From an uncultured Dehalococcoidia bacterium (GTDB lineage Bacteria > Chloroflexota > Dehalococcoidia > Lucifugimonadales > UBA1127), in assembly GCA_913049785.1 (NCBI GenBank), contig CAJWXP010000006.1:5538-69537 (forward strand): a stretch of DNA of 64,000 nt, read 5' to 3'. The number at the start of each line of letters is the position of its first letter. Within the stretch, counting starts at the first letter, position 1. Below, piece after piece: positions 13,669-47,647 of the stretch. The translations under genes and the position numbers were made by a program. The notes beneath the pieces were generated by a model. It was not told the DNA's origin. It saw only the letters and a program-made list of their open reading frames with translations, and ran no database searches.

Positions 13669-13884
13669 GAGAGACAGATTGGCTGAGCCCTCGGACGAAT
13701 TGTCCGGGGGCTCAGCCTCTTTCAGGAGCAGCATTCATCGCCGTGGCCCTTTGGAATAATCGTCTCGACTCGGCCCACGGCTTGGTCAATTACTATTTTG
13801 TCGAAAACCAGCTTCAACAATTGCTGCCGCTCGTCGAAGTTCATTGATTCTAGTCTTTGTGTCACACGCGCACAGAAAGCCTCC
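13663..13884 (+). repeat. direct repeat copy A (tmRNA CCA end + terminator + recombinase 3' tail)
   Basis: A gapless hand alignment to 31119-31340 gives about 18 mismatches in 222 positions. Confidence 0.85.
13681..13717 (+). terminator. intrinsic terminator after tmRNA
   Basis: GGCTGAGCCCTCGGAC / GTCCGGGGGCTCAGCC form a hairpin with one wobble, followed by TCTTTC. Confidence 0.7.
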
Positions 13885-14360
13885 ACTTGCTCCAAGCCTT
13901 GGTTCATATCAAATTCTCGCTGCTCTCGCTTTTCTAATTCCCTTTAGCTCCATTCCAATCCTGATCGTTGCCTCTTCTGTTTTTCCATTTCCGCTTGGTA
14001 GCGATCCAAATCCATCACACTGCCAACGTATGCTTCTGTCACCCTGTCCTCTTGGCTTTTCGCTCGCCGTAGTGCCACCTCAATTTGCTTACGCTCCGCA
14101 CCAATCCCGCTCGGCGAAGCAGTCGCCTCAACAACGCGTCTGTACTCACGCTTCAACATGTCCGGATGGCTCAATGCTTCGGTCACTGACTTCCACACCA
14201 AGTCTTCGACGAGCTGTGTTGGAAAGCCACCAGGTGTGCAGCGTTCCTTTGTGGCGAACGAGCCTGTATTAGCACCGATGCATCGGTATCCCCTGTAGTC
14301 ATGCCGTGCATACCCGGTGTAGTTCCCTCCGCATCGTGGACACCGCACCAATCCTCGCAA
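13722..14360 (-). pseudogene. large serine recombinase, 5'-truncated with in-frame TAA
   Basis: The zinc-ribbon segment (CPRCGGNYTG..YRGYRC) and the coiled-coil tail (..QQLLKLVFDKIVID..VETIIP) are present. The two track ORFs (13944-14360 and 13722-13907) share a frame and are separated by a TAA at 13944-13946. The resolvase catalytic domain is absent. Confidence 0.7.
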
Positions 14361-20576: not shown

Positions 20577-21393
20577 TCAGTCGGATGGTCGCATTCCATC
20601 CGCTGTCCGTGCTTTCGCCACGTCGCAGCACCTGAAGAACTCTGCACCGGTATGGCTTTGCATGTACTTGATTAGACGTTCCAACACCATGATCTTCGCA
20701 AGCCGCCCGGTCACTTGTGGATGCATCGTCAGCGTCAAAGCCCTGCCGTACTGGTAAGCACCGTCAAACTCCCACTCCCAGGCTTTGTAGACATCCTCAG
20801 GGGTGTTCATGGACCCTGCTCCACGACTGAATGCATAGTATGGGACGTCATCCAATGCCCACTCTACAGGTATCTCTACCATCCGTCCGTTGGCCGTGTC
20901 GACAAAGTAGGGAGCATCGTCTCCCATCAGACTCGAGTCATACAGGAAGCCACGCTCCGCCAGCAGGTCCAGGCTGTACGGGCTGAGTTCCCACGACGGC
21001 AAGGTGCCCCAGGGGCCGTTGTCCGGTGATCCGATCCAGGATCTGAAGACCCCTGTCGAGGACTTCGGCTTCCTTCTGAGGTTCCAAGGTGGCTGGGGGC
21101 TCGTGCATGTAGCCGTGATGACCAATCTTGTGCCCTCGGCGAAGTATCTCCACGACGGTCTCTTCGTTTGTTTCTGCGATGAAGCCGGGTATGAAGAACG
21201 TCGCTGGGACCCCATACGTTTCCAGCAAGTCCAGGATGCGGAACACGCCGACGTTAGGGCCGAACTCCCCTCTCGACATTGCTGTAGGGCGGTCAACCGC
21301 ACCCGGATCACGGTTCAATAGACCTGTCACGCCGTCCAGGTCAAATCCGAGTAACACACCACATCGAGTGTCGCCAGGCCAAATACCCGTCAT
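20577..21393 (-). pseudogene. polysaccharide deacetylase (NodB-like) family, single frameshift
   Basis: The N-terminal part lies in ORF 20938-21393 (ATFFIPG..GHKIGHHGYMHE..ITGQRPLG). The C-terminal part lies in ORF 20577-21311 (..LPSWELSPYSLDLLAERGFLYDSS..). The frames swap at the CCCC/GGGG runs at 21003-21016, and the total length of 817 nt is not divisible by 3. Confidence 0.7.
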
Positions 21394-21462: not shown

Positions 21463-22740
21463 TCAGGATGTAGCTAGAAGCTCAGTCCTCGAGGTCTCGA
21501 AAGGATCCGCGTCATGGGGGAGAACCATTGCACCACCCCGAATGCGGTAGGCTTCACCGTCTTTTGCTCCCCTGGCCTCTGCGCCGTCCATCACTGCCTT
21601 GGCTAAGTCGATCATGAGGCGGCGCCAGTAGATCATGGCGGTGTCCGAAGTACCCAGGTGCTCCTTGCTCCGACCCGTGATAGGACCCATGCTCTCCTGG
21701 ATGGCTGTGTCCTGTGTGCCAACGCCACGGACACCCGTGTAGTTATAGTTTCGCTGCATCTCCCGGTCGATAAGGTAATCATTGTCCGCATTGGCGAAGT
21801 TACGGAAGGTGATTGGGTCAACCACGGCATGGTTTTGATCCCCAGCACGGAAGATCTCCAGCTCCTCTTCGGTGAGGGGCCGGTCCGGATGCCAGGAGAA
21901 GGTAAAGGCCCAGCAGTTTTCGTCGTCAATGGGTACCCACGCATGACCGGTGAGGTAACGCCCTGCAGCGCTCGGGATGATGGTGTATGCCGGCATCATG
22001 ACTTGGGAAAAGCGCCAGTAATAATGGCCTTCTTCAGCGTTCCTGCGGGCACCAATCGCAAATCCGTATGGGGTATCGCGGACAAAAAATTTGGGAGATT
22101 TATCTTGGATCATGTAGATAGGGCGCTGGACCAGGAACCCGTCCTTGCCCGCCTTCATCTCCTGGACGTCCGCGAACACCCGGTGGAGGAACGAAACGTG
22201 GCTGGAGTCCACTCCCCCTTCTACGCCTTGTGCCCAGTTCGTTTCCTGGCGCCGCTTGGTGACGAACCGGTGGTCCTCAGGGACCCGCGCCCACTCAAGC
22301 TGAGGCAGCTCCGGTGTCTGGTCTTGCGGGCCCAGGTATGCCCAAAGCACCCCTCCCCAGTCCTGGGTTGGGTATGATGTGACGTGGACCTTATCCTTGA
22401 AGTTGCTCTCGGCTGGCTCTGAAGGCATGTCCACACAGTTGCCGTCTACATCAAACTTCCAGCCGTGGTAGACACACCGCAGGCCACATTCCTCATTGCG
22501 GCCAAAGAAGAGGCTGGCCCGGCGATGGGGGCAGTAGTTGTCCAATAATCCCACATTGCCGTTAGTGTCACGGAATGCTACGAGGTCTTCGCCCAGGAGC
22601 CGGACCCGCAACGGATCGCAGTCTGGTCCAGGAAGTTCACTGGACATCAAGAAGGGCATCCAGTATCGACGGAATAAGGTACCCATTGGTGTGCCAGGGC
22701 CAATTTTTGTTAAGTATTCATTGTCTTCAATGCTCAGCAT
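21463..22740 (-). CDS. Rieske [2Fe-2S] non-heme-iron oxygenase alpha subunit (phthalate-dioxygenase family)
   Basis: The Rieske motif is CPHRRASLFFG..CVYHGWKF, and the Fe site is NWAQGVEGGVDSSHVSFLH. GGAGGGGG lies upstream of the ATG. Confidence 0.9.
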   Translation of the reverse strand: MLSIEDNEYLTKIGPGTPMGTLFRRYWMPFLMSSELPGPDCDPLRVRLLGEDLVAFRDTNGNVGLLDNYCPHRRASLFFGRNEECGLRCVYHGWKFDVDGNCVDMPSEPAESNFKDKVHVTSYPTQDWGGVLWAYLGPQDQTPELPQLEWARVPEDHRFVTKRRQETNWAQGVEGGVDSSHVSFLHRVFADVQEMKAGKDGFLVQRPIYMIQDKSPKFFVRDTPYGFAIGARRNAEEGHYYWRFSQVMMPAYTIIPSAAGRYLTGHAWVPIDDENCWAFTFSWHPDRPLTEEELEIFRAGDQNHAVVDPITFRNFANADNDYLIDREMQRNYNYTGVRGVGTQDTAIQESMGPITGRSKEHLGTSDTAMIYWRRLMIDLAKAVMDGAEARGAKDGEAYRIRGGAMVLPHDADPFETSRTELLATS

Positions 22741-24299: not shown

Positions 24300-25601
24300 T
24301 CAGCGCAACCGCTCACCGCGTTTGGCGCTCTCGCCTGCATCGGCGGCGACTTCCCAAGCGTCATCATCGGGCCCAATAATGATTTCCTCAGAGCGGATCA
24401 TGTGGAAAGGAATGCTTGGGTCTAGAGCAGGAGGCTGATCTCCCTCTAGGAGACCTCTTGCAGCGCTCAGGAGCATCTGGCGAAGTCTGATGATAGCCGC
24501 ATCGGCCGAATACAGGTGCTCATTGGTTCTATCGTAGATGGGCCCCATGCTTTCCGTGACGCAATAATCCTGCTCTCCCCCCGACCAGATGCCGGATATG
24601 AGCTTCGTCTTCTGAGCCTCACGGTCAATCATGTAATCGTTGTCCGCCCGGAGCAGCCTCATACTCGGATCGTTGGGGTCCATAACCATAGCCTGCCGCT
24701 TGCGCTGCTCGCGTTCGGCGGCTGTGAATGGCCGTCCGGGTCTTGCTGAAAAGCTCATCCTGAAGCAATTCTCATCGTCAACCGGCACGTGCATCAGAGG
24801 GCCTCCAGAACCCCGCGGCGCTGCGATGAACGTAACGTAAGGCATGACCTGGCAGTTGATACGAAGGTGCTGATTTCCAGCCTCTGTGGGACGAATGGCG
24901 ATGAGCCGAAACCCATACGACGTATCCTGCACCTCTACGTTCGCATATCGGTAATGCGCTCGTTGATAGATGGACTGGGTAAGATCGGGATACCCCGGCT
25001 GGTCGGGCTCCGTGAGCTCGATTTTGAAGTCATCCAGATACCTATGCAACGTGCCTAGATGGCTCGAGTCGATGTTTCCTTCCAGGCTTTGGACCCAATT
25101 GCAGTAAATGGGAGTGCGCGTAGCTATAACACAGTCCGGATCAACACGATTGAACATGAAATCCGGAGAAGGCGGTTGGTGTTCGGCCGGTCCCATGTAC
25201 GCCCAGACAGCACCTGCGGATTCTATGCAGGGATAGGACGTGGTTCGGACCTTGTCCTTAAAGTTGCTATCAGGAAGGTCGGACGGCATGTCGACACACT
25301 GTCCGTTAACGTCAAATTTCCAGCCATGATAGATGCACATAATTCCACAATCCTGATTGATGCCAAAGAACAACGATGCACCTCGATGGGGACACCGCTC
25401 ATCGAGGAGCCCTACCTTGCCCTCGGAGTCTCGGAAGGCAATTAAGTCCTCGCCTAGGAGTCTAATCCGAAGGGGGGCTCCATCATTTTTCGGCAACTCC
25501 TCAGAGAGCAGGAATGGATGCCAGTAACGTCGCAGCACGTTCCCCATCGGGGTACCGGGGCCGACCCTGCACAAAATCTCATTGTCTTCAGTGGTTAGCA
25601 C
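24300..25601 (-). CDS. Rieske non-heme-iron oxygenase alpha subunit
   Basis: CPHRGASLFFG..CIYHGWKF and NWVQSLEGNIDSSHLGTLH are present. The start is GTG, preceded by GGGGAGG. Confidence 0.9.
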   Translation of the reverse strand: MLTTEDNEILCRVGPGTPMGNVLRRYWHPFLLSEELPKNDGAPLRIRLLGEDLIAFRDSEGKVGLLDERCPHRGASLFFGINQDCGIMCIYHGWKFDVNGQCVDMPSDLPDSNFKDKVRTTSYPCIESAGAVWAYMGPAEHQPPSPDFMFNRVDPDCVIATRTPIYCNWVQSLEGNIDSSHLGTLHRYLDDFKIELTEPDQPGYPDLTQSIYQRAHYRYANVEVQDTSYGFRLIAIRPTEAGNQHLRINCQVMPYVTFIAAPRGSGGPLMHVPVDDENCFRMSFSARPGRPFTAAEREQRKRQAMVMDPNDPSMRLLRADNDYMIDREAQKTKLISGIWSGGEQDYCVTESMGPIYDRTNEHLYSADAAIIRLRQMLLSAARGLLEGDQPPALDPSIPFHMIRSEEIIIGPDDDAWEVAADAGESAKRGERLR

Positions 25602-27087: not shown

Positions 27088-28392
27088 TCATACCCGAGCT
27101 ATAGCGTCTTCTCGACGTTCCTCCAAGAATTTTCCAAAATCCGGCTCTGGGGAAAAGGTGTGGATTGACCGCACACGATAGAGGTCTCCATGCGACGCAG
27201 GATAGGGTTCAATCCCCTCTTGGAGGTCTCTTGCCAACGTCAAGAGCAATCGACGCGCACGTATGATGGCGGCATCTGTGGTGCCGAGATGTTCCTTCGT
27301 CCGGTCGGCCACAGCTCCCATGCCGTCAGTCACCATTTCGTCTTGACTCCGGGCGGTAGCTATCCCGGTGAAGCTGAGAGTCTTCTGCGCCTCTCGGTCT
27401 ATCAAGTAGTCGTTGTCGGCGTTGCGGATATCTCTCCAGGTATCCAACACCGCTCCGTCTAGCATTCGATACTTAACTTGCTCCACCGTCGGGCTTATTC
27501 TCAGCCCGTCGCGCTCGTGTTCAGTTATCGGGTCGTCTCCAGCGCTGAAGTAGTACTGAATGACCGAGGTATGATCATCATCAATGGGGACGTAGGCCCT
27601 TCCACCCTGGGGCCAACCGGGGCGCGGCCCAGCGGTGATGCTGTACACGGGCAACATCCATTGCGTGACGCGCCAGTAATAGTCCTTATCTCCGGTGTTC
27701 CTCCGGGACCCGTAAACAAACCCATAATCTGTGTCCTGTACGGTCAGCATCGGCGCACCGTCTCGTTGGCCGTAGACCTGGGTCTCCGCGCCGCGCCTGT
27801 CCGGGTTTTCGTTGGAGTAGGGGTCGAACCGCTTATGGAGATACGTAGTGTGGGCAGTGTCTATCTCCCCTTCAGTACCTTGCATATAGTTCGCTTCTTG
27901 TATCCATCGGCTGAGTTCTCTATGCGTGTCCGGCACTCGGCACCACTCCATCTGTGGCAACTCTGGTTGGAGACCTTGTGGCCCCATATATAACCAGACG
28001 CACCCGCCGAACTCCTTGGCTGGGTACGCTTTGATCTTTACCTTGTCTTTGAAGTTGCTTTCCGCAGGTTCAGAGGGCATATCTACACAGTTGCCGTCGA
28101 CGTCGAACTTCCAGCCGTGGTATACGCACCTGAGGCCACACTCCTCGTTGCGTCCAAAAAACAGGCTCGCTCTTCGATGTGGACAGGCGGAATCGATAAT
28201 ACCAACTCGGCCGTTAGTGTCCCGGAACGCCACCAGGTCTTCACCGAGTAATCGGAAGCGCAGCGGCGGGCAGTCAGGCTGGGATAGCTCTGTGGATAGC
28301 AGCGCGGGAAGCCAAAATCGACGGAAGACCTCACCCATTGGCGTGCCAGAGCCCACCTGGGTTAAGAGTTCATTATCTGCTTTGCTCAACAT
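27088..28392 (-). CDS. Rieske non-heme-iron oxygenase alpha subunit
   Basis: CPHRRASLFFG..CVYHGWKF and NYMQGTEGEIDTAHTTYLH are present. GAAGGAGG lies upstream of the ATG. Confidence 0.9.
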   Translation of the reverse strand: MLSKADNELLTQVGSGTPMGEVFRRFWLPALLSTELSQPDCPPLRFRLLGEDLVAFRDTNGRVGIIDSACPHRRASLFFGRNEECGLRCVYHGWKFDVDGNCVDMPSEPAESNFKDKVKIKAYPAKEFGGCVWLYMGPQGLQPELPQMEWCRVPDTHRELSRWIQEANYMQGTEGEIDTAHTTYLHKRFDPYSNENPDRRGAETQVYGQRDGAPMLTVQDTDYGFVYGSRRNTGDKDYYWRVTQWMLPVYSITAGPRPGWPQGGRAYVPIDDDHTSVIQYYFSAGDDPITEHERDGLRISPTVEQVKYRMLDGAVLDTWRDIRNADNDYLIDREAQKTLSFTGIATARSQDEMVTDGMGAVADRTKEHLGTTDAAIIRARRLLLTLARDLQEGIEPYPASHGDLYRVRSIHTFSPEPDFGKFLEERREDAIARV

Positions 28393-28646: not shown

Positions 28647-30494
28647 TTACTGAGCCGCCTTGATGAATTCAAGGTGGGTGTGCGTACTGGTGATAGCACC
28701 CGGATAGATGTAGTCACTGACGAACTTAGGATTGATCACCGTTTCAGGAACCAGCCAGAACAGCGGGACCGTATAATATTTAGTAAAGGAAATCTCGCCC
28801 AACTCATGGAGCCACGCCTCTTGCTTTACGACATCCAGCGATCCCCGGATCTGGAGGAAGAGTTCGTCCATACGCGGGTCCTCCGGGTTGCCTGTCCGTG
28901 GGGTGGAGTGGGTGGCATAGACCCGGATCCCCAGCAGGAGGTGGGAGCTGGTGCCGGTGATGTTTAGCGAGTTGTCGTACTCGAAGTTCCGGCCCCTGGC
29001 CCGCCGTGTAGCATTGTCTTCAACAACGAGTTTGGGCTTCATGCCCACGTCTGAGAGGAACCCGAATACTGCGTCCACAACATCCAGAGACCCGGAGTAG
29101 TGGGTAAGGTTGATGGACGCCAGATCAATCTCGAACGGGTTGTCAGCAGTGTATCCAGCCTCTGCTAGCAGGGCCCGGGCCTTCGCGGGATCGTAGCCGT
29201 AGAACTGCTCGAAGCGGCTTGCCCATCTGGGATCCCAACCTTCGCGGGTGGGGTGGAAGTTGTTCAAGATCATGACCTCGCCCTTGCCGCCGAAAAAGGA
29301 TACATTCAGCAGGTCCCGGTCGATGGCGCGGTTGATGGCCTCCCGGACCCGTACGTCCTGCATGGGGGCGTCTGGGTACTTATACGCTGCGTCAAACTCA
29401 GGAAGTGTGCTTCGGGTGGAAGAGGTGGCAGGCAGGCGGATGCAGCATCGGAGGGCCATGAAAGTCCGTAGACCTGGGACATTGCCCTTTGCAATCTTCA
29501 TGCCAGCATCAAGCATCTGACTGAGGTTGTCCTCTGGTATGGGAGCCAGGTGGATCTCTCCCGCCAACACGCCGGCGACCCTGGTAGATGCCTCAGGTAT
29601 CCAGCGAATCTCCAGCTCCTGGAAGTCCGGTGTCATGCGCCAGTGCTCGTAAGGCGTTCGCTCGTAGCGGAAGAACGATCCAGTTGTATGGTCTAAGAAC
29701 TGGTAGGGGCCTGTGCCTGCATTAGGCTGTTGTGTTAAATTCGGCACTCCCGTCGCTTCCCGATGGTCCTTGCTCTGGATCAGGAGGCTCTGAGACAACT
29801 CACTGGTGAGGATGAACAGGTCCGCTGCTGGTGACGGCGCGCGGAAGATCACCTCATAATCGTTGACGACCTCTACTGTAGTAACGAGCCTCCGCATGCT
29901 CGCTGAGTTCCCATGCCCTGAATCTTCAGCAGCTATTTGCTGCCAACTATGTAACACGTCTTTCCCTGTGAACTCACCCCAGCCGCTATGGAATTGAATG
30001 CCTTCACGAAGCTTGAAGCGCCAGGACTTGCCGTCCGCGTCAACGCTCCAACTCTCCGCCAACTGGGGTATCAGGGCTCCGGTCACCGGATCCATTCCCA
30101 CAAGGTACTCATACATCGGCGTCAGAGGTTGGGCGTCAACGGGGCCGTTCTTTCCCGGTGTGAAGTTTTCTACTTGCGGTGCAACCTTGGCAAAGATGAC
30201 CCGCTGGATTTTCGCTTCCACGGGTGCGGCCATAGCGCCACCAGATGCCGCGATGGGTGCAGTTGCAGCTGCCGGAGTTCCCACTGCGATAATTGCCGCA
30301 GGTGCGGCGGTTGGCGCAGCAGCGGCTGCGGCCGCAGCAGCGGCTGCGGCTGGGGCCGCAGGCTCAGCGGTGGTGCCAGACGTGTTTGTGGTCGTCGTGT
30401 CATCATCACCACTGGAACAGGCTGCTGTTATTGCTAAAACAAGAATGAGAATCAGGAACAAACCAAATCTAGATGCGTATCGCGAACTGGTCAT
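28647..30494 (-). CDS. ABC transporter substrate-binding lipoprotein, family 5 (peptide/nickel/opine type)
   Basis: The signal peptide and lipobox read LVLAITAAC, followed by a Thr- then Ala/Pro-rich linker that includes a 12-Ala run. The body is SBP_bac_5-like. ATG at 30494 follows GGGGAGGG. Confidence 0.85.
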   Translation of the reverse strand: MTSSRYASRFGLFLILILVLAITAACSSGDDDTTTTNTSGTTAEPAAPAAAAAAAAAAAAPTAAPAAIIAVGTPAAATAPIAASGGAMAAPVEAKIQRVIFAKVAPQVENFTPGKNGPVDAQPLTPMYEYLVGMDPVTGALIPQLAESWSVDADGKSWRFKLREGIQFHSGWGEFTGKDVLHSWQQIAAEDSGHGNSASMRRLVTTVEVVNDYEVIFRAPSPAADLFILTSELSQSLLIQSKDHREATGVPNLTQQPNAGTGPYQFLDHTTGSFFRYERTPYEHWRMTPDFQELEIRWIPEASTRVAGVLAGEIHLAPIPEDNLSQMLDAGMKIAKGNVPGLRTFMALRCCIRLPATSSTRSTLPEFDAAYKYPDAPMQDVRVREAINRAIDRDLLNVSFFGGKGEVMILNNFHPTREGWDPRWASRFEQFYGYDPAKARALLAEAGYTADNPFEIDLASINLTHYSGSLDVVDAVFGFLSDVGMKPKLVVEDNATRRARGRNFEYDNSLNITGTSSHLLLGIRVYATHSTPRTGNPEDPRMDELFLQIRGSLDVVKQEAWLHELGEISFTKYYTVPLFWLVPETVINPKFVSDYIYPGAITSTHTHLEFIKAAQ

Positions 30495-31118
30495 AATACC
30501 CTCCCCAAGGTCTATGTTATCCGAATATAGTCCCCGTACGAGCGGGTAAACTAGCATAATCTTATAAATTAGTCAAGAACCATTCTTATTGAAATATGCT
30601 ACGGAATCAATTTATAGTTCGCGAAAATACATCTGAATATGAAATAACATCCGGGAATTCCAATGGTTTACAAATATCCGTTATGTAAATAAGCACTCTT
30701 TATGTTGTCGGATACATACGATCATTGAGGAGCTGTGGAATTGGGAATTGTACCAAGCGAAGATCCAGGTCTTGTTACAGTGAGAGTTGGAATTTAACCA
30801 TTCTCTTTTATCGGCAACGCGCAGAAGGCGAATGTGCGTAGTAGTGGTGTCGATTCTCGTCGCCGAACTAATCGGGGGCATCAATCGTTGGCGAGCATAC
30901 CGGACTAAAGGGTTTGATACGGCCTCATGCGGCCAACTAATCTCAATCAAAAAGGTCGAGTCTCTCGTAGCGCACGAAAGCATTCCTTAGGGTTCACCGA
31001 GGCCCAGCAGGAGCGGATTCACCAGCAGGACTATCGAGGCCGCGAACCATCCCCAAATACGTTTCCCGGCGCCGCCCTTGAGTCTGGCACTGATCCGCTT
31101 ATGTGCCCGGTGCCGGGC

Positions 31119-31340
31119 CCACCAGAGAGACAGATTGGCTGAGCCCTCGGACGAATTGTCCGAGGGCTCAGCCTTTTTCAGGAGCAGCACTCAACGCCGT
31201 GACCCTTTGGAATGATCGTCTCGACTCGGACCACGGCTTGGTCAATTACTATTTTGTCGACAACCAGCTTCAATAATTGCTATCGCTCGTCGAGGTTCAT
31301 TGATTCCAGTCCCTGTGTCACACGGGCACAGGAAGCCTTC
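31119..31340 (+). repeat. direct repeat copy B
   Basis: Matches 13663-13884 with an offset of 17456 nt. It starts with CCACCA and includes a perfect 16-bp hairpin at 31137-31173. Confidence 0.85.
31178..31340 (-). pseudogene. relic of large serine recombinase C-terminal tail (copy B)
   Basis: It translates to ..ARVTQGLESMNLDER*QLLKLVVDKIVIDQAVVRVETIIPKGHGVECCS*. The in-frame TAG lies at 31280-31282, and nothing upstream is recombinase-like. Confidence 0.55.
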
Positions 31341-31346
31341 TCGTGA

Positions 31347-32402
31347 TCACACCCGGTTCCCAATTTCCGGTGAATCAGCGGCGTATCGGTAGGCTCGAAA
31401 CACCTGACGACTGGGCTGGCCCACTCGATCGACCACCAGGGGGTTGATGAACTCCCAGACGGTTTCGCACTCTTGAGTCACTTCGAACATGCGACCCGAT
31501 CGTCCTTCACAAATGAGGGTGTTGCCGTTGGGTAAACGCTGGGCCCCGCTGATGTTGAAGCTGAAGAACGAGTCCGGTGGCGCTCCCGTATACTCCCAGA
31601 CAATCTCCTGAGTCTCCGGCACGATCTCAATGACCCTGGAGTGGTTGCGGCTTGCTCCGTTATCAAACACCAGTATGTTTCCATTAGCCAGCATCGTCGG
31701 GTTGTGCTGTGAGTTCGTGATGCCCTGATTAAGCCGCCATTTTACCTTCCCGGTATTCTTATCGATGATCATGAGCCTGCTCAGGCTATTGAAGCTCACC
31801 AGCAGATCGCCACCGGGAAGCTCCTCCAACGCGTTACAGTGAAGCCAAGTGGATCGTGGGCCTGTTGGAGGTGGAACGTCCGCATCAAGATCCAGAGAAT
31901 CGTAGGCACGCCACTCCCAGACGACCTGCCCGTCAGGGGTGATTTCCTTCAATCGTTCGCCACGGATAGTCCCATCATCTGCTTCTGTGCCCGGGGCACC
32001 CCCCTTAATCTTTGAAGCAGTATCCGGGGCAAGGACATCAGATATCACGACGATGGTGTTTCCGTTCGATCGCCTCACATGGTCGTGATGTGTCAGGGCG
32101 TCCTGATACTCCCAGACCACGTTGCCATCCCAGTCCATCTCTACCATGAGGCCTGAGTTTCCCCCTAGCTCACCAAAAACCTCGGTGCCGTCCACCAACT
32201 TAGCAAGCAGGTTGCCGTTCTCCAGCAAAGTCCCATAGAACGTTTTTGTTCCTGTTGGTGCCGCCCATTCATGGACGACACTCCCAGCCATATCGATCAA
32301 ATAGAAAGCCGGTGCCGACATTGGCGTGTACAGGGTATATCCAGGAGACGTGCGTTTCCCATCGTGATGGGACAGGCCCGCCAGAAACATTGAATAGCCC
32401 AT
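31347..32402 (-). CDS. arylsulfotransferase (ASST)-like beta-propeller protein
   Basis: 351 aa with repeated NGN(L/T/I)L motifs, HHD..R..NGNT and HCNALE. No signal peptide is seen. The family call rests on pattern memory only. Confidence 0.55.
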   Translation of the reverse strand: MGYSMFLAGLSHHDGKRTSPGYTLYTPMSAPAFYLIDMAGSVVHEWAAPTGTKTFYGTLLENGNLLAKLVDGTEVFGELGGNSGLMVEMDWDGNVVWEYQDALTHHDHVRRSNGNTIVVISDVLAPDTASKIKGGAPGTEADDGTIRGERLKEITPDGQVVWEWRAYDSLDLDADVPPPTGPRSTWLHCNALEELPGGDLLVSFNSLSRLMIIDKNTGKVKWRLNQGITNSQHNPTMLANGNILVFDNGASRNHSRVIEIVPETQEIVWEYTGAPPDSFFSFNISGAQRLPNGNTLICEGRSGRMFEVTQECETVWEFINPLVVDRVGQPSRQVFRAYRYAADSPEIGNRV

Positions 32403-32919: not shown

Positions 32920-33837
32920 ATGACTACTGATACCACCTTGAAAAAGGTACGTCTTTCCGTCAGCAACGCGGTGCATTCTTTGACGGTCTTGGTAGCAAGT
33001 GAAGAAGGTCTCTTTGTTGAGCAAGGGCTTGACGTTGAACTTGTGAAGACTGCAGGTGCAGCGCAAGTCGATACCACCAAAGAAGACGTTCGCACTGCCA
33101 TCTTTGATCGTCCGTTAGAGGCCCTTTATAACGCCGGAGGAATGGACCAGTTCCGGCTGTGTGAATGGGGCATAGTCAAACGGGTCGTAGACGGTTGGCA
33201 GTCAGATCAACGGCCTGCCAAAATCGTAGGCCTTGGCGCCGCCATGTCTAAGTTTGCTATCGTTGTTGGGGCCAATAGCAGCATCGTAGAGCCGGAGCAG
33301 CTCGCCGATACGGAAATAGCTGTAACCATCTACAACGGTTCCCACTTCACCACGCTCAAGATGCTTGAGGGGTTCCTCACAAAAGACGAACTCAAGGTCA
33401 CAAACGCAGGCACTATGCCTCAACGACTTGAAGCCGTCCGCAAAGGTGAGTTGGCCGCTGCTACCTTTAACGAGCCTTGGATCAGCGTGGCCCAGAAGCA
33501 GGGATTGCGCATCATCACTGAAGCCCACTCCACCAGGATTGAGGCTGCTGGTGACGAAATGGACGGCCCCACCCTGGCCGCAACCTTCCGGGCTCAAGCT
33601 AACGCTGCCGAACTCATCACCGCCAACCCAGCGAAATACACCCACTATATGAGTGATGAGACTGGCGGTTTGCTCACCCCTGATGAACTTCAGACATGGC
33701 GCCTTTTGTATGTCGCCCCTGCACCTTACACGCGAGCGCGTTTCGCTCGCACGTACCAATGGATGTTGGGGTTCCCGGACCTTGTGCCAGAAGGTGCCAC
33801 CTACGAAGCAGCGGTAGACAACCGCGCCTGGGAGTAG
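32920..33837 (+). CDS. NMT1/THI5-like (type-2 periplasmic-binding fold) protein, no signal peptide
   Basis: AAAGGAGGG precedes the ATG. It is a paralog of 35342-36259, with long shared blocks: FRLCEWGI(V/M)KR, NGSHFTTLK(M/L)LEGF, EPWISVAQKQG(L/F)RII and YTR.RF..TY.WMLG(F/Y)P(D/E)LV. Confidence 0.7.
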   Translation: MTTDTTLKKVRLSVSNAVHSLTVLVASEEGLFVEQGLDVELVKTAGAAQVDTTKEDVRTAIFDRPLEALYNAGGMDQFRLCEWGIVKRVVDGWQSDQRPAKIVGLGAAMSKFAIVVGANSSIVEPEQLADTEIAVTIYNGSHFTTLKMLEGFLTKDELKVTNAGTMPQRLEAVRKGELAAATFNEPWISVAQKQGLRIITEAHSTRIEAAGDEMDGPTLAATFRAQANAAELITANPAKYTHYMSDETGGLLTPDELQTWRLLYVAPAPYTRARFARTYQWMLGFPDLVPEGATYEAAVDNRAWE

Positions 33838-33887: not shown

Positions 33888-34448
33888 ATGCCCAGAAGGG
33901 TTCCTGTCATTACCCGTGATCAGGTGGCTGATGAGCACAAGGCGGCCTACGACGAGATAACCGCCATCCGCGGTCGCCCGCCGGTAATCGGCCCTTCGTC
34001 CGTCCTCATCAACAGCCCTGAGATGGCACTGCGCTCTAATCGCCTATCGGAATACCTGGGTGGGTCTGACGCTTTGCCGGAGAAGATAAAACGGTTGGCT
34101 GGCATGATCGCGGCCCGCTCAATGGACTGCCAGTACATCTGGGACGCCCAGGCCACGGAAGGTCGTAAAGCCGGGCTAAGCGGGGCTCTTGTCGATGCCA
34201 TGCGTGAGAAGAATCCGCTCCCGTCATTGCCTGCAGATGAAGCTCCTCTAGTGCACTTCGGTCAGGAGCTTGTGAGCACCAGCCGGGTGAGTCAGGAAGT
34301 CTTCCAGGCTGCACTTGATCAGGTAGGCCTTCAAGGCCTTACAGAGTTCACCACATACATCGGGTACTACCGGATGCTGGCCCTCAACGCGAATGCTTTC
34401 ACTATCGATGTACCCGAGCAACGCACTGAGGCGTTATTGCCTATCTAA
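33888..34448 (+). CDS. carboxymuconolactone decarboxylase (CMD) family protein
   Basis: 186 aa with CMD-like helices (..LAGMIAARSMDCQYIWDAQ..). Confidence 0.7.
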   Translation: MPRRVPVITRDQVADEHKAAYDEITAIRGRPPVIGPSSVLINSPEMALRSNRLSEYLGGSDALPEKIKRLAGMIAARSMDCQYIWDAQATEGRKAGLSGALVDAMREKNPLPSLPADEAPLVHFGQELVSTSRVSQEVFQAALDQVGLQGLTEFTTYIGYYRMLALNANAFTIDVPEQRTEALLPI

Positions 34449-34503
34449 AGAAATCGGGAGCGAACCAACGGAGTCGCGAACGCTTCAAGAGAAAGGAACC
34501 AAA

Positions 34504-35181
34504 ATGCCTTGGATCAAGGTCATCACCCCCAAGGAATCGGAAGGCGAGTTGAAAGAGGTCTACGCCAAACTCGCCGCACAACGTGCCGGTGAGGCTATCA
34601 ACCAGGACAGAGAGTCTGCCCCAGGAGAGCCACCGATTACGCCGCCGATGCTCCATAGCTTAAATCCCAAAGTCATGTGGCACACGGCCGAACTCATGTG
34701 GGAGATCATGCGTGGGGAGTCGCGGCTGACCACGGCACAGCGAGAGATGATCGCCACCGTAACCTCCGCCACGTTGAACTGTCGCTTCTGAACTGTTGCC
34801 CACGCAGAGTTTCTGCGACAAGAAGGTGGAGACGACCTGGTAACAGAGCAGGTGAAAGACGACTGGCGAAAGGCCGACCTTTCTAAACCCGACTACGCAA
34901 TGCTGGAATACGCGGAAAAACTGAGCCTGGCGCCCAGCATGATGAATGAGGGAGATATCGCAAATCTTCGGGATGCCGGTTGGACGGATAGAGACATCCT
35001 CGACATTGCGCACGTATGCGCCTACTTCAACTTCCGCGTACGCATGGTCGATGGGTTGGGACTTGAGCTTGGCGATTGGCAATTAGAGCGTTCAAAGGCG
35101 GGTGCTGAGAGAGCGCAGGTACTTGCTGATCAACGCGGTCAGGCCATGCCTGCGGATCCATGGGGAGTACGAGCAAGCTAA
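34504..35181 (+). CDS. AhpD-like peroxidase-related enzyme, candidate selenoprotein (in-frame TGA at 34789-34791)
   Basis: Track ORFs 34393-34791 and 34852-35181 share one frame. Read through the TGA they give ..ATLNCRF[TGA]TVAHAEFLRQ..DIANLRDAGWTDRDILDIAHVCAYFNF.., a single AhpD/CMD-core protein. The TGA sits at the second Cys of C-x-x-C-x3-H. A hairpin at 34803-34817 has the loop AGUUU beginning 17 nt after the TGA. Confidence 0.6.
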
Positions 35182-35341
35182 CAATTCTTATTCTATAGGC
35201 ATTATCGAATAGGAATGTTTTAGGATGAATAGCTATTGAGCCAAGTGGGTTGAAAATCCCATAAATAGGCAATGTATTCTACGCAATTGTGTCAAACTTA
35301 ATTGGATGTCACACAAATATAAAACAGGGGAGGACAGTTAT

Positions 35342-36259
35342 ATGACGACAGAAGCGGGTTTGAAAAACGTTCGAGTATCTATGATGAATGCGGTCCACGA
35401 TCTGGCCTTACTAGTAGCAAGAGATGAAGGGCTGTTTCGGGACCAAGGGCTTGATGTGGAGATCGTCACAACACCGGGGACTGCGCAGGTGGGTGCGGAC
35501 CGCCAAGCAATGAAGGACGTGATATTCGATCGGACTATGGAGTCAGCGTACAATTCGGGCGACGTGGACCAGTTCCGTATGTGCGAGTGGGGAATCATGA
35601 AACGCACTGTCGAGGCTGAGGAAGCCGGTCAACGATCAGCCAAGATCGTGGCGTTGGGTTCCGCGATGTCCAGCTTTGCAATCATCGCCGCAGCAAACAG
35701 TGACTATTATGAGCCGGAGCAGTTCAGGGACGTGCCAATCGCCGTGAGTCCCTTCAATGGCTCCCACTTCACGACGCTGAAGCTACTGGAAGGATTCATA
35801 GCTAAAGAGAACATCAAAACCACCAATGCCGGCACCATGGAAGAGCGATTGACAGCCATTGGCAAGGGAGAAGTAGCAGCCGGTTCATTCATGGAGCCGT
35901 GGATCAGCGTGGCCCAGAAGCAGGGTTTCCGGATCATCATGGAAAGCCACTCCACTCGCAGCGAGGCGTCTGGTGACGAACTTGATGGCGCCACTCTTGC
36001 AGCGATGTTCCGGGCCGAAGCTGCTGCATCGGAGATGATCAACAACAACCCCAGTAAGTATGCGCATTACTTCATGGAAGAGGCCAAGGGTCTCCTTGAA
36101 CCCAAAGACCTTCAGACCTGGCGGCTGCTGTACGCCCCTCCCGTTGCGTACACACGTGAGCGCTTCGACTATACGTACAACTGGATGCTGGGCTATCCGG
36201 AACTGGTAACTCCCGGGGCTACCTTTGAGGGCACCGTGGACAACCGAGCCTGGGAATAA
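35342..36259 (+). CDS. NMT1/THI5-like protein, no signal peptide (paralog of 32920-33837)
   Basis: GGGGAGG precedes the ATG at 35342. See the shared blocks listed for 32920-33837. Confidence 0.7.
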   Translation: MTTEAGLKNVRVSMMNAVHDLALLVARDEGLFRDQGLDVEIVTTPGTAQVGADRQAMKDVIFDRTMESAYNSGDVDQFRMCEWGIMKRTVEAEEAGQRSAKIVALGSAMSSFAIIAAANSDYYEPEQFRDVPIAVSPFNGSHFTTLKLLEGFIAKENIKTTNAGTMEERLTAIGKGEVAAGSFMEPWISVAQKQGFRIIMESHSTRSEASGDELDGATLAAMFRAEAAASEMINNNPSKYAHYFMEEAKGLLEPKDLQTWRLLYAPPVAYTRERFDYTYNWMLGYPELVTPGATFEGTVDNRAWE

Positions 36260-40131: not shown

Positions 40132-41391
40132 CTACGATTCCTCTCTCGTGTTGGCGAATGTGTACCCTTCAGGCTTCCACGGCTCCTTGGGCTCTTGGCC
40201 TTCCATCAACGCCCTTGCGGTGTCTATCATCCTCTGTCGGACGCGGATGATGATCTTGTCAGTACTGACCAGGTGCTCTTTCCACCGATTAGAGACCGGG
40301 CCCCACTGATTCTCCTGAAGAGCCGTATCCTGAACCGCGGTCATGGACATGCCACTGAAGCTGAACTGCTTTTGCTTGATGCGGTCAATGTTGTAGTCGT
40401 TAAAGATATTGTCTTTGTACAGGAACGTTCCCGGCTCCTGGGGTGGGTTGATGAGACCACCAATGCGCAAATCCCAAATCTGCTGTTCCGTCAGCGGGCC
40501 CGTGGGGCTCCAACGTACGCGGAAGTAGATGGTGTGCTCATCGTCTGAGGGGACTTTGATGTTCAACGGGTATGTGCCCTCAGAGGCTAGGCCTACCGGA
40601 TCAAAACACGGCATAAGCCAACTGGCACCGCGTCCCGTATTGGATGGCCTACTTTGCCCCTCGTCACCGCGCCTAACCACTCCTCCGCCACCACTCCTGG
40701 TGGTGCCTATACCACACTCGTATTCGATGGGTTCTGGCAAAGGTGGCTTGTACTCAGGTGATGTGCCTACGGGCCTGCTGATAGTCCCGTTGAACTTGTT
40801 AGCAGGGTTGCTGCGGTTGTCGTCGAGGGTGCTGTGGAGGAAGGCAGCGTGGCTTGGATCGAAGTCGCCTTCAAGCGCCTGCATGTAATTGGAGTGATAG
40901 ACGTACTTTGCCGCTTGAGTCCAACTGGAGGGGTTCGAGAACCAGTCGAATCCAGGATCGGGCGGCCTCTTGTCCGAGGGCCCCATGTAGAACCAGATCA
41001 ACCCGCCGCCCTCGATAGCCGGGTATGCAGTGATCTTGATCTTGTCCTTGTAGGTGTCGCCTTCCTGACAATTAGGCATGTGGACGCAATTGCCATCCAC
41101 ATCAAACTTCCACCCATGATAGATGCAGCGAAGGCCGTTCTCCTCGTTCCGGCCAAAGAACATAGGCGCACCGCGATGGGGGCAATAGGCATCAACACAG
41201 CCTACGTTCCCATCGCTATCGCGGTAGGTGACCAAATCCTCGCCAAGAAGCCTTAGTCGGATCGGATCGCCATCGGGTTCAGGCAACTCGCTGGACAGCA
41301 TTGCCGGCAGCCAAAACCTTCTGAACAGCTCGCCAGTGGGAGTCCCTGGGCCAACCTGGGTAAGCATGGCATTGTCTTCAACTGAAAGCAC
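40132..41391 (-). CDS. Rieske non-heme-iron oxygenase alpha subunit
   Basis: CPHRGAPMFFG..CIYHGWKF and NYMQALEGDFDPSHAAFLH are present. The start is GTG after GGGAGGTG. Confidence 0.9.
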   Translation of the reverse strand: MLSVEDNAMLTQVGPGTPTGELFRRFWLPAMLSSELPEPDGDPIRLRLLGEDLVTYRDSDGNVGCVDAYCPHRGAPMFFGRNEENGLRCIYHGWKFDVDGNCVHMPNCQEGDTYKDKIKITAYPAIEGGGLIWFYMGPSDKRPPDPGFDWFSNPSSWTQAAKYVYHSNYMQALEGDFDPSHAAFLHSTLDDNRSNPANKFNGTISRPVGTSPEYKPPLPEPIEYECGIGTTRSGGGGVVRRGDEGQSRPSNTGRGASWLMPCFDPVGLASEGTYPLNIKVPSDDEHTIYFRVRWSPTGPLTEQQIWDLRIGGLINPPQEPGTFLYKDNIFNDYNIDRIKQKQFSFSGMSMTAVQDTALQENQWGPVSNRWKEHLVSTDKIIIRVRQRMIDTARALMEGQEPKEPWKPEGYTFANTREES

Positions 41392-44274: not shown

Positions 44275-46068
44275 TTAGCGCGCTGCTCGTACGCTATCAA
44301 AGTGGCTGTACTGTGCAACCATGCTTCCAGGGAAAACCCAGTCTGCAACGATTTCAGGGTTGTACATAAGAGAATTGGGAATCCAAAGCAGCGGGATGTT
44401 CTGATTGTTATCGAACATGAGGTCACCTACCTCACGGAAGATCTTGGTATGTTCGGCCTGGTTCATTGTCCCTCTGGCCGCCAGATGTAGCTCATTCAGC
44501 CGCGGGATGATGAATACGCTTGGTGTCCTAGCATACTGACTTCCGTAGATGAAGACGTTGGTGAACAGGTCAGAAGATGTCTGCCTCAGGTCGATGTGAT
44601 TATCCATCTCGTGTGCTCGAATCTTCGAGGCCTTCGCGTTGCCGTCCATGGTCTCCAGCTTGACCTTGACGCCTATGTCTTCAATCATTCCGACCATGGC
44701 CAACATCATGTCCTGGCCTTCTGGCAAACCCCGGTATGACGTCGCCAGAACTACGTTGACTTCGTAGGGATTGTTGGGCCCGTACCCGGCCTCTGCCAGC
44801 AGGGAACGAGCGGCAGCAGGGTCATAACCAAACTGCTCAGGGTATCTGGTTGCCCACTCGGGGTTCCAGCCATCACTTCGCTCGTTGTAACCCATGGTGA
44901 TCAGCAGTTCTCCACCACCGCCAAACAACGCTTGGTTTAACTTATCCCTATCAATGGCCTTGCTCAGGGCTCGACGCACCTTGATGTCCTGCATAGGCAC
45001 ATCAGGATGGATATAGCCCTGTGATGGATCATTTCTGTCCTTCAAGACACAACACAAGAACTGCACCACTGTGCGTTTCGCAGGTATCGTTCCCTTAATG
45101 AGCTGCATCCCATCGCCGAAGGCAACGCGGTGGAGGTCTGTGGCAAGAGGAGTAATGTGAACCTCCCCAACCTGCAATGCGGCCAATCGCGTGAATTCTT
45201 CCGAAATGAACCGCAACTCCATTTCCTCAAACTCAGGAGTCACGCGCCAGTGCTGGTACGGTACCCGCTTGAAGCGAACGTAACTACCCTCTGATCGTTC
45301 AAGGAATTGGTACGCGCCGGTTCCTGCCATCGGCTGGTCATCCAACCCAGGATATTCACCCATAGCATCTAAGTTCCTGCTGCTCATGAATTCAAATCCG
45401 CCGACGAACTGTGAGAGGTTCCTAAAAAGGGTGACGTTAATCTGCTTCAGATTTAAAACCGCTTCGCGGTTGTTCAGGACTACAACATTGTCGATATTGC
45501 GGCGATATTGGTCGCTGCCGGGATTGTCCCCGTGCATGGCATCTCGAACCGCGTCCTCGAAATCATAGGCAGTCATCTCGCCCCAGCCGTTGTGGAACTG
45601 GACGCCTTCCCGGAACTTGAACTTTATTGTCTCATTGGTCAACGCCCATTCTTCAGCAAGCATGGGCGTATAAGCGCCTGTTGCCGGATCCACGCTGGCA
45701 ACCCACTCATACATAGGGCCAAGCTGCCAGCCCGAGGTGCCGGTGATCCCTGTGGCGGCGTTGGACTCGTTGAGGGGCGCAGGAACAGCAATGACCAACC
45801 GCTTTACTGCGGCAGGGCCCTCTATAGCGGATGTTCGTGCAACCGGCGCAGACGCTGAAGGAGCAGACAACGGCGCCAAGGTATTCGGCCTTACTCCTTC
45901 AGGCGCTGCAGCGGCAGCGGGGGCTTGGGGTTGAGCTGGGGCCGCAGACGGTGCGGTACTTACAGAACCTCCACCTCCACCTCCATCCCCAGAGCTACAA
46001 GCAGCCACTAAAGCAACTGCACTGATAGCTATCAGTAGAAACGATACTAGCCTCATCTGTATTCTCAC
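44275..46068 (-). CDS. ABC transporter substrate-binding lipoprotein, family 5
   Basis: Lipobox LVAAC, then a Gly/Ala/Pro-rich linker and an SBP_bac_5-like body. GTG at 46068 follows GGAGG. ATG at 46056 is an alternative start. Confidence 0.85.
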   Translation of the reverse strand: MRIQMRLVSFLLIAISAVALVAACSSGDGGGGGGSVSTAPSAAPAQPQAPAAAAAPEGVRPNTLAPLSAPSASAPVARTSAIEGPAAVKRLVIAVPAPLNESNAATGITGTSGWQLGPMYEWVASVDPATGAYTPMLAEEWALTNETIKFKFREGVQFHNGWGEMTAYDFEDAVRDAMHGDNPGSDQYRRNIDNVVVLNNREAVLNLKQINVTLFRNLSQFVGGFEFMSSRNLDAMGEYPGLDDQPMAGTGAYQFLERSEGSYVRFKRVPYQHWRVTPEFEEMELRFISEEFTRLAALQVGEVHITPLATDLHRVAFGDGMQLIKGTIPAKRTVVQFLCCVLKDRNDPSQGYIHPDVPMQDIKVRRALSKAIDRDKLNQALFGGGGELLITMGYNERSDGWNPEWATRYPEQFGYDPAAARSLLAEAGYGPNNPYEVNVVLATSYRGLPEGQDMMLAMVGMIEDIGVKVKLETMDGNAKASKIRAHEMDNHIDLRQTSSDLFTNVFIYGSQYARTPSVFIIPRLNELHLAARGTMNQAEHTKIFREVGDLMFDNNQNIPLLWIPNSLMYNPEIVADWVFPGSMVAQYSHFDSVRAAR

Positions 46069-46122: not shown

Positions 46123-47418
46123 TTAGACCTTGATCCCCGCATCTTCTCCGGCAAACGCGCCATAGAGTCGCCAGTCGTCTCCGAAAGGCATGATCTCCTC
46201 ATGGGATCGGACTTTCCCTAAAACGGCCGGGTCATGCTTCATGGGCTCGATGCCTTCAAGCATGGCCCTCGCAGCGTTCACCATGACCTTCCGGTTATGG
46301 ATGATGGCACCGTCTGATGTTCCCAAATGCTCGTTCTGCTTGTCACTGATGACTGCCATACCCTCAGTAACAGCTTGATCCTGGGTTCCAACACCGCCGA
46401 TTCCCGTAAAGCTCAGATTCCGTTGGTCGTCACGGCTGAGCATGTAGTCGTTCCACTTGCCCTTTTCACCACGGCCGTGGATGTCGGTCTTGTTTCCGGA
46501 GTTGTTCTTGCGATCCTCTCGCTCCTCCTCAGTGTTAGGGCGGTCCGTCCGTGCGCTCACGCTCCAGCGCCAGCATGTCTCATCGTCCCGGGGCACCATC
46601 ATCAGAACTCCGGGGCCCTGGGATGGCAGCCTGGAGATCATCTGGTAGATCGGGAATATATTCGTGGTGATCCGAAGGTGGTTGTGTCCGTTCGGGGTGG
46701 TTCGGATACCAACGTAGCGCCAGCCATAGTTTGTCTCCTGGACTACTACGCGCGCATTGCGGTCTGCGCCCCGGATCTTGGTGGACATCTTGTTGGATGG
46801 AGTTCCTACGATGTCTGTACCGTCATCAAAGTCGCTCATGTCCAGGTCAGCCAAGTTGCGGTGCAGGAAGCTGATGTGGGATGAATCGATGTTGCCTTCG
46901 ATCACCTGGACGTAGTTGGCATCTGACTGTACGCGATTGGTGATGATATGGCTGTCCGGGTAGTCGAATATCTGGAGGTTCAGGAATGGAGGCTGAAGCT
47001 CCTTGGGACCCATGTAGGTCCAAATAGTGCCCCCGCGGTCAACCGTAGGGTAAGCAGTGATTTTGACCTTGTCCTTGAAGTTACTCTCAGCGGGCTCGGA
47101 TGGCATGTCGATGCAATCGCCGTTGATGTCAAATTTCCAGCCGTGATAGACGCACCGCAAGCCGCTCTCCTCGTTCCTGCCAAAGAACAAACTTGCGCGA
47201 CGATGAGGGCAATAGTTGTCGACGAGGCCAACATCACCGTTGGTGTCTCTGAAAGCGACCAACTCCTCGCCCAATAACTTCGCTCTGACTGGTGGGCAAT
47301 CTGGCTCAGGAAGCTCCTCAGAAGTCAGAACCGGCAGCCAGTAACGCCGAAGAACCTCTCCCATTGGAGTGCCTGGTCCGACCCTACAGAGTAGCTCATT
47401 GTCCTCATGTGTCAGCAT
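46123..47418 (-). CDS. Rieske non-heme-iron oxygenase alpha subunit
   Basis: CPHRRASLFFG..CVYHGWKF and NYVQVIEGNIDSSHISFLH are present. ATG at 47418 follows GGGGAGGG. Confidence 0.9.
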   Translation of the reverse strand: MLTHEDNELLCRVGPGTPMGEVLRRYWLPVLTSEELPEPDCPPVRAKLLGEELVAFRDTNGDVGLVDNYCPHRRASLFFGRNEESGLRCVYHGWKFDINGDCIDMPSEPAESNFKDKVKITAYPTVDRGGTIWTYMGPKELQPPFLNLQIFDYPDSHIITNRVQSDANYVQVIEGNIDSSHISFLHRNLADLDMSDFDDGTDIVGTPSNKMSTKIRGADRNARVVVQETNYGWRYVGIRTTPNGHNHLRITTNIFPIYQMISRLPSQGPGVLMMVPRDDETCWRWSVSARTDRPNTEEEREDRKNNSGNKTDIHGRGEKGKWNDYMLSRDDQRNLSFTGIGGVGTQDQAVTEGMAVISDKQNEHLGTSDGAIIHNRKVMVNAARAMLEGIEPMKHDPAVLGKVRSHEEIMPFGDDWRLYGAFAGEDAGIKV

Positions 47419-47647
47419 GTATTCCCTCCCCAATACCCTTGTTCGCGTTTATGCCGGGAAATCGCTCTGATTATTCCCTACGTAAACCGAATTCAAATCA
47501 TACGGCATCTGAATGAAGCTAATGTAGTTGATTTCGCTTGCATGTCAACCCCATCCCATCATGTGAGAAGGGAAGTTTGAAGTATACGATGGAAATATTC
47601 CTAAAAAGCATAATTAAAATCCATGATGGAATAACTAAATCGATGGA

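Follow-up and report, generated by a model that had tools for sequence, protein, structure and literature searches.

A candidate AhpD-like selenoprotein gene with an in-frame UGA and a conserved SECIS-like hairpin in a marine SAR202 bacterium

Positions 34504-35181 (forward strand) of the window, by which we mean the whole 64-kb stretch of DNA that was analysed, hold a single intact gene, which belongs to a marine bacterium of the SAR202 group (Dehalococcoidia) and is mis-annotated as two proteins. The in-frame UGA at 34789-34791 that divides it very probably encodes selenocysteine (Sec) in the active site of a redox enzyme of the AhpD-like type. A selenoprotein at this site had been proposed as a candidate in the initial annotation, and that reading is now supported by the same TGA in 59 of 59 close copies, by homologues with Cys at the same position, by selection on the codons that follow the TGA and by a conserved hairpin just downstream of it.

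The NCBI records of a 'SAR202 cluster bacterium' MAG list the two halves apart (MQG76592.1 and MQG76591.1), and in this MAG and in dozens of related genomes the public records show the gene as two unrelated short proteins. Recognition of the Sec codon would restore a full-length redox enzyme and mark the organism as a selenium user. The kind of gene is not new: reports of the family, of its CxxU motif and of how abundant it is in the ocean go back to 2005-2008. The value of the result lies mainly in the correction of the annotation, and it opens no new question.

The reading frame, its protein family and its homologues

Translation of 34504-35181 gives 225 codons including one internal stop, the TGA (MPWIKVI...NCRF(stop)TVAHAEFL...GWTDRDILDIAHVCAYFNF...), and homologues share the start MPWIK that the window gene has at ATG 34504. 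When the coordinates were rechecked, the two open reading frames from which the initial annotation had started (34393-34791 and 34852-35181) were found to lie in one frame with this TGA as their sole separator. The exact 95-residue N-terminal half, which ends at the TGA, is recorded on 22 contigs of independent assemblies, and the TGA is therefore not a sequencing or assembly error. The features of the gene are collected in Table 1.

Table 1. Coordinates of the gene and its features within the window
Feature	Position	Strand	Remarks
AhpD-like (TIGR01926/COG2128 type) candidate selenoprotein CDS	34504..35181	+	225 codons including one predicted Sec codon; TAA 35179-35181
Shine-Dalgarno-like AAGGA	34493..34497	+	6 nt 5' of ATG 34504; read from the sequence, function putative
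Glu81 codon, predicted proton-relay Glu	34744..34746	+	12 residues before Cys93; invariant 59/59
Redox motif C93-R-F-U96-T-V-A-H100 (C-x-x-U-x-x-x-H)	34780..34803	+	aligns with C-x-x-C-x-x-x-H of 3c1l, 6k40, 2pfx
In-frame UGA, probably read as Sec96	34789..34791	+	TGA in 59/59 close copies, sole internal stop in each
Upper hairpin of the candidate SECIS	34802..34818	+	stem 34803-34808/34812-34817; apical loop GUU 34809-34811
Possible lower SECIS helix, 5' arm	34794..34800	+	weak in the window: two G-C pairs plus G.U pairs
Possible lower SECIS helix, 3' arm	34825..34831	+	same basis as the 5' arm 34794..34800
CMD-superfamily paralogue, weak	33888..34448	+	186 aa, 55 nt upstream, without CxxC; Pfam CMD E = 0.0078, below cut-off

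For scoring against Pfam and NCBIfam profiles the stop was replaced by Cys in the product. The read-through product reaches 121.5 bits against NCBIfam TIGR01926 'peroxidase-related enzyme' of the AhpD/CMD superfamily (cut-off 81.8) and also matches Pfam CMD (PF02627; 1e-10; 41.9 against a cut-off of 23), which agrees with the AhpD-core 'peroxidase-related enzyme' identity first given to it. Its relatives in the PDB are 3c1l, 6k40, 2pfx, 2prr and 2oyo (E = 5e-24 to 4e-19). The solved AhpD-core relatives are single chains that cover both halves of the window protein, and their CxxCxxxH matches C93-R-F-U96-T-V-A-H100 residue for residue. The TGA had been placed at the second Cys of C-x-x-C-x-x-x-H, and homologues and solved structures indeed have Cys in that column. 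E81, C93, U96 and H100 are each kept in at least 58 of the 59 copies, and the fragments are named YciW/COG2128 by JGI. Taken jointly with a SECIS-directed insertion of Sec96, we consider it highly probable that the product is an AhpD-like thiol/selenol oxidoreductase of the TIGR01926/COG2128 'peroxidase-related enzyme' type, with a correspondingly predicted redox chemistry.

A genome scan with one genome per species returned 75 loci. Fifty-eight close loci, whose tblastn matches cover residues 1-223 across the TGA, were carried through and make 59 copies with that of the window; outside this count stand the close loci L030 and L032 (partial, with the same TGA), L062 (frameshifted) and L065 (C-terminal fragment only). 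In all 59 copies the TGA lies at the identical codon and is the only internal stop, the read-through products being 213-252 residues long. The copies belong to Dehalococcoidia/SAR202, Binatia, 'Deltaproteobacteria' and Candidatus Udaeobacter; the closest genome copy (L003) is 96% identical and comes from a marine Dehalococcoidia MAG, and one genome carries five TGA-containing paralogues. When 5.8 billion proteins were searched, most of the matches were of half length, some of 124-140 aa beginning just past the motif and others of about 126 aa ending in ...NCRF. Gene callers therefore split the AhpD-like family at one place everywhere.

The homologue alignment bears out the expectation of TGA or Cys at exactly this column, with TGA in the 59 close copies and Cys in the full-length P0002, P0003, P0004 and P0069 and in L064. 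The codon at the Sec position is TGC in the Cys-form loci L081, L083 and L064, and Cys likewise occupies the Sec96 position in more distant homologues and in the solved structures. An apparent Trp at this place in P0001 (JGI) is a TGA in the DNA that was translated with another table.

The hairpin 3' of the UGA

The complementarity that had been noted between CGCAG (34803-34807) and CTGCG (34813-34817) around AGTTT (34808-34812) is present as described, and the distance given for the loop, which begins 16-17 nt after the TGA, also holds. The hairpin lies inside the coding sequence and has a stem of 6-7 bp that starts 10-11 nt after the TGA; its loop reads AGUUU if the closing A-U pair is open. 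The outermost pair, A34802/A34818, is a mismatch in the window and A-U in 46 of 56 distinct sequences.

With alignment columns numbered from the T of the TGA, the upper helix is formed by columns 14-20 with 24-30, and 97.4% of its cells are paired. Its closing pair (20-24) covaries, being A-U in 33 and G-C in 23 distinct sequences and unpaired in none, and this base-pair swap goes with an amino-acid switch from Glu-Phe to Gly-Ala/Ser/Ile. Pair 18-26 is A-U in 53 sequences and G.U in 3 (GCA-to-GCG changes), and the loop opens with a G in every sequence. The weaker lower stem that had been suggested at 34796-34800/34825-34829 is mostly G.U in the window copy and draws its support from the copies taken together, where 83.7% of the cells of the lower helix (6-12/37-43) are paired, with a few two-sided changes. 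L012 (-22.6 kcal/mol, z = -3.74) and L080 have this lower helix as their minimum-energy structure; the window does not.

The window hairpin is the weakest variant, with its outer A/A mismatch and a G.U-rich lower stem, and the window fold by itself is no better than dinucleotide shuffles (52 nt, z = -0.13; 45 nt, z = +0.07; both from the TGA), so that the case for the hairpin is a comparative one. A search of 34740-34900 against Rfam, at E up to 10, gave no match to a SECIS model, and among the Rfam families there is no bacterial SECIS that matches this gene.

The comparison extends to codon choice. The observed choice at codons 100-105 in the 59 genes was set against background use in the same genes (Table 2). 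For the same amino acids in flanking codons the synonymous choice varies freely, and elsewhere in the gene synonymous sites are saturated. In the Cys-form loci L081 and L064 different synonymous codons are used and the hairpin is lost, and L083 keeps a remnant of it.

Table 2. Codon choice at codons 100-105 and background use in the same genes (simple binomial probabilities would overstate the case, because the sequences are related)
Codon	Amino acid	Observed	Background
CAC	His	58/58	69%
GCA	Ala	56/59	9%
GAG	Glu	35/35	75%
TTT	Phe	34/34	22%
CTG	Leu	59/59	36%
CGT	Arg	49/59	11%

The two stem arms have a coding role as well, for the conserved residues His-Ala and Leu-Arg, and because most stem pairs are invariant the structural support consists of the one covarying pair together with the conservation of synonymous sites. 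With its paired upper helix, its covarying closing pair and the frozen codons, the SECIS-like hairpin of the initial annotation has proved to be conserved, and the comparative pattern indicates that it is under selection at the level of RNA. We regard it as a clean comparative example of a putative bacterial SECIS in which the codons for the catalytic His-Ala and for Leu-Arg double as stem arms and a switch from Glu-Phe to Gly-Ala preserves a base pair, pointing to overlapping protein and RNA constraints.

The E. coli fdhF SECIS, the reference bacterial SECIS, is likewise a hairpin within the coding sequence directly 3' of the UGA. Its upper stem-loop starts about 11 nt after the UGA, and a G stands at the start of its apical loop. 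The window hairpin differs from it in having another sequence, a shorter loop (3-5 nt) and no obvious bulged U.

Decoding of the UGA and competing explanations

We propose that the hairpin made from codons His100-Ala-Glu-Phe-Leu-Arg105, 10-11 nt past the UGA, would act as a bacterial SECIS and would recruit SelB carrying Sec-tRNA(Sec), leading to the insertion of Sec at position 96. Sec96 would replace the second Cys of C-x-x-C-x-x-x-H and would sit in a proton-relay set of Glu81/Cys93/Phe95/Sec96/His100, with a Sec96-Cys93 selenenylsulfide formed in turnover as a peroxide or an oxidised partner protein is reduced. We thus infer both SelB-dependent decoding and actual selenium incorporation at UGA96.

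The part of the gene downstream of the TGA is translated, to judge from the strong purifying selection that acts on it. In the comparison with L003 the window copy has a dN/dS of 0.017 upstream of the TGA; downstream of it dN/dS is 0.026 and dS is 1.04, in line with the prediction that constraint would continue past the TGA. In pairs with more divergent copies the synonymous sites have reached saturation, and pN is only 0.12-0.2. The most conserved stretch is that of codons 97-116, between the TGA and GTG 34852, which holds His100 and an invariant GGDDL. The initial annotation had offered as its alternative a simple nonsense mutation, which would have killed an ordinary Cys-type AhpD-like gene; such a pseudogene would fit the two fragments annotated in the public records, the window hairpin that is not significant on its own and the frameshift in the related locus L062. 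A simple nonsense mutation is, however, excluded by the retention of the single stop, and of no other, in 59/59 close copies across four bacterial lineages and several phyla. The low dN/dS past the TGA at dS about 1 and the genome that keeps five TGA-containing paralogues further argue against decay, and we give the pseudogene next to no credence. It is also very improbable indeed that the locus makes two polypeptides, the N-terminal one, of 95 aa, terminated at the TGA and the C-terminal one restarted at GTG 34852 or similar. This is exactly what gene callers predict, yet the codons ahead of that GTG are under protein-level constraint, the supposed restarts vary among homologues (M or V, at different positions) and the solved relatives run as single chains over both halves.

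Under a third alternative the UGA is read as an amino acid other than Sec, whether by reassignment (to Trp or Gly), by near-cognate read-through or by insertion of Cys via a SelB-dependent tRNA-Sec-like tRNA. The W that JGI gives at the Sec codon of P0001 would be consistent with this, as would the search for the Sec machinery, in which neither the 64-kb window nor the ±3-kb flanks of the 75 related loci yielded a selA, selB, selD or tRNA-Sec. Here, tblastn with E. coli SelA, SelB and SelD gave zero matches in the window and all fetched loci, ARAGORN reported no tRNA-Sec in the window and 60 loci, and Rfam (whole window at gathering thresholds, 34740-34900 at E up to 10) gave a tmRNA and two chance matches only; the types seen in ten of the largest ORFs of the window (342-636 aa) are SBP_bac_5, Rieske/LigXa_C, amidohydrolase and 2-hydroxyacid dehydrogenase, with no Sel proteins among them. 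Against these points, 10 of the window's 52 large ORFs end in TGA, and the TGA at 20577-20579 separates a deacetylase-like gene from an unrelated amidohydrolase gene in the same frame. Since TGA is thus an ordinary stop elsewhere in the window, it has not been reassigned, and the W in P0001 is an artefact of the translation table applied to a TGA. The conserved local hairpin favours recoding of the SECIS/SelB type over reassignment, and Sec/Cys pairing at a redox Cys is the classical signature of a selenoprotein, as which the family is catalogued (PMC13188914). We therefore consider decoding as anything other than Sec to be decidedly unlikely, though the sequence by itself is compatible with Cys delivery, and retain Sec96 as the preferred reading.

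Two further candidates were rejected in the course of these searches. A 93-nt 'tRNA-Gly' in L006 was a false positive, located within coding sequence and without Rfam support. A screen for a second selenoprotein gene, covering all TGA-joined ORF pairs and CxxU/UxxC-type contexts in the window, left the AhpD-like gene as the sole survivor, the other pairs being the two unrelated genes on either side of the TGA at 20577 and, for the rest, shadow ORFs.

Known relatives and genomic neighbourhood

AhpD-like CxxU proteins (COG2128) were first described in 2005, when 27 sequences from the Sargasso Sea were reported as a new family of selenoproteins (PMC1088965). In the Global Ocean Sampling analysis of 2008, 'AhpD-like 1' (COG2128, CxxU) ranked fourth in abundance among prokaryotic selenoprotein families, with 299 sequences from 37 samples (PMC2398784). 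The statement in the initial annotation that AhpD-like selenoproteins had been predicted in surveys of marine metagenomes was thus correct. A 2026 review has the entry 'AhpD-like protein, TIGR01926, CxxU' (PMC13188914), and BSepDB, which is restricted to species having two or more Sec-pathway genes, devotes a family page to AhpD-like protein, TIGR01926, CxxU (PMC13326102). In the same source the ten bacteria richest in selenoprotein genes include two MAGs of Dehalococcoidia, one with 49 and one with 46 (PMC13326102). Together with the comparative signature, this literature lends indirect support, at the level of the class, to a Sec machinery in the window's organism.

We assign the window gene to this AhpD-like CxxU family because it passes TIGR01926 and contains CxxU, and because JGI gives the fragments the name YciW (COG2128). 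It resembles the family in its domain model, in a CxxU with predicted Sec at the second Cys, in marine habitat and in a candidate SECIS hairpin with an apical-loop G just 3' of the UGA. Nothing essential differs, the window copy being one from SAR202/Dehalococcoidia that is mis-annotated as two proteins. With NF041238 AhpD_rel_CFYUT ('hypothetical protein 1', Sargasso Sea) it has the AhpD superfamily, CxxU and the character of a marine selenoprotein in common, but the two are different families: the score is 50.3 bits against a cut-off of 175, and the match is partial, covering only the C-terminal part of the model (positions 207-344 of 357).

Proton relays have been described for M. tuberculosis AhpD (Glu118/Cys130/Cys133/His137) and for P. 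aeruginosa PA0269 (Glu36/Cys48/Tyr50/Cys51/His55) (PMC3141380). The CxxCxxxH and a Glu 12 residues upstream are common to these proteins and the window product, whose E81/C93/F95/U96/H100 have the same five-residue relay spacing as Glu36/Cys48/Tyr50/Cys51/His55. Both are characterised Cys proteins, whereas the window gene has a predicted Sec at the second Cys and is without an adjacent ahpC. Overall similarity to them is low, and the best PDB relatives are 3c1l, 2pfx, 2prr and 2oyo, which are uncharacterised 'peroxidase-related' proteins, together with 6k40.

The weak CMD-superfamily paralogue upstream (Table 1) adjoins the selenoprotein gene only in the nearest relative, L003. The two genes are possibly co-transcribed, and a link between them may be supposed. 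The gene also lies between two paralogous NMT1-like neighbours (32920-33837 and 35306-36259), and an arylsulfotransferase and a 2-oxoacid:ferredoxin oxidoreductase are encoded nearby; an ahpC (peroxiredoxin) gene, adjacent or in an operon, was not found near it. NMT1-like genes recur beside the gene in the closest Dehalococcoidia clade, and one Cys-form homologue ends an NMT1-type ABC transporter operon. No operon partner is conserved across all loci, the NMT1-like genes being conserved in the closest clade only.

A broader reading, which we consider unlikely, is that SAR202/Dehalococcoidia have expanded the Sec AhpD-like family into a dedicated redox module; linked to it is the option of a non-canonical decoding of UGA, for example as Cys from a tRNA-Sec-like tRNA. 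This reading draws on two paralogue types per genome with their own SECIS variants and on at least five TGA copies on one 3.2-Mb chromosome. Such a module could be tied to oxygenase-rich catabolism or NMT1-type transport and not to AhpC-type peroxide defence. The idea of this context, which is suggestive only, stems from the NMT1-like genes that adjoin the gene in the window's clade and in the Cys-form operon and from the Rieske oxygenases of the window.

The window as a whole is rich in Rieske oxygenases. A 4.5-kb scaffold reached beyond the window carries further genes of the same types.

TGA-containing paralogues and deviant copies

Dehalococcoidia genomes usually hold two types of TGA-containing paralogue, the first with the hairpin loop AGUUU and the residues H-A-E-F-L-R, and the second with the loop GGGCC and H-A-G-A-L-R. 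Such pairs are found, for example, at the loci L003/L050, L004/L055, L006/L051 and L008/L053, and the 3.2-Mb chromosome OZ240228.1 carries five TGA-containing copies (L026, L036, L038, L042 and L052).

The paralogue at L055 has Asp in place of the motif His (CRY-TGA-TVGDAG, GAC for CAC, around 3286-3300) and retains both the TGA and the hairpin. The substitution may reflect an altered active site or a mistake in sequencing. Decay was seen in one copy only, that of a groundwater 'Deltaproteobacteria' MAG (L062, 211-857), where a frameshift after ...RLSTAQ is followed by accumulating stops; the gene either is truly a pseudogene or has been misassembled.

The Trp at the Sec position of the JGI product P0001 (locus L080) stems from gene calling with an alternative translation table; the DNA of this short contig reads TGA. 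The 93-nt 'tRNA-Gly(tcc)' called by ARAGORN at L006 405-497 (-) lies within GC-rich coding sequence and is without Rfam support, and is thus a false positive, not a tRNA-Sec.

Cys-form and ordinary relatives

In the Cys-form P0002 (L083, 3001-3621), which has TGC at the second-Cys codon, a partial hairpin (GCAGAAUUUCUGC) remains at the SECIS position, which suggests a recent Sec-to-Cys conversion. At five loci from the group of Binatia, 'Deltaproteobacteria' and Udaeobacter (L011, L012, L013, L015 and L019) the Sec gene is followed, in the same orientation and ~1040-1520 nt past the TGA, by a second AhpD-like paralogue of 147-159 aa; it has an ordinary C-L-R-C motif without the His at +4.

Genomic surroundings of the selenoprotein gene

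The pair formed by the CMD-like and AhpD-like genes sits between two paralogous NMT1-like genes (table), and NMT1-like genes again adjoin the selenoprotein gene at the closest Dehalococcoidia loci. The Cys-form homologue P0004 is the last gene of an ABC_tran / NMT1 / BPD_transp_1 operon. The AhpD-like selenoprotein may be functionally tied to NMT1-type transport.

Coordinates of neighbouring features, in the window unless a locus is named
Feature	Position	Strand
tmRNA gene (ssrA)	13316-13668	
Direct repeat, copy 1	13663-13892	
Direct repeat, copy 2	31119-31348	
NMT1-like genes	32920-33837, 35306-36259	
NMT1-like gene at the locus of a Cys-form homologue	L081 1210-2211	
Rieske/LigXa_C oxygenases	21463-22740, 24300-25601, 27088-28392, 40132-41391, 46123-47433	all -
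Family-5 solute-binding proteins (SBP_bac_5)	28647-30557, 44275-46068, 60359-62182	all -

Elsewhere in the window, there is a direct repeat of 230 nt (91% identity between copies), whose first copy starts at CCACCA, the 3' terminus of the tmRNA gene, and contains a terminator-like hairpin. The 17.5 kb between the copies encode an MFS transporter, an LVIVD-repeat protein, three Rieske/LigXa_C oxygenases, an SDR and an SBP_bac_5 protein, with no integrase seen in this interval; the stretch may be an island or a segmental insertion at ssrA. The full 64 kb hold five paralogous oxygenases of the Rieske/LigXa_C type and three solute-binding proteins of family 5. Such paralogue expansion is typical of SAR202, and agrees with the assignment of the organism to this group.
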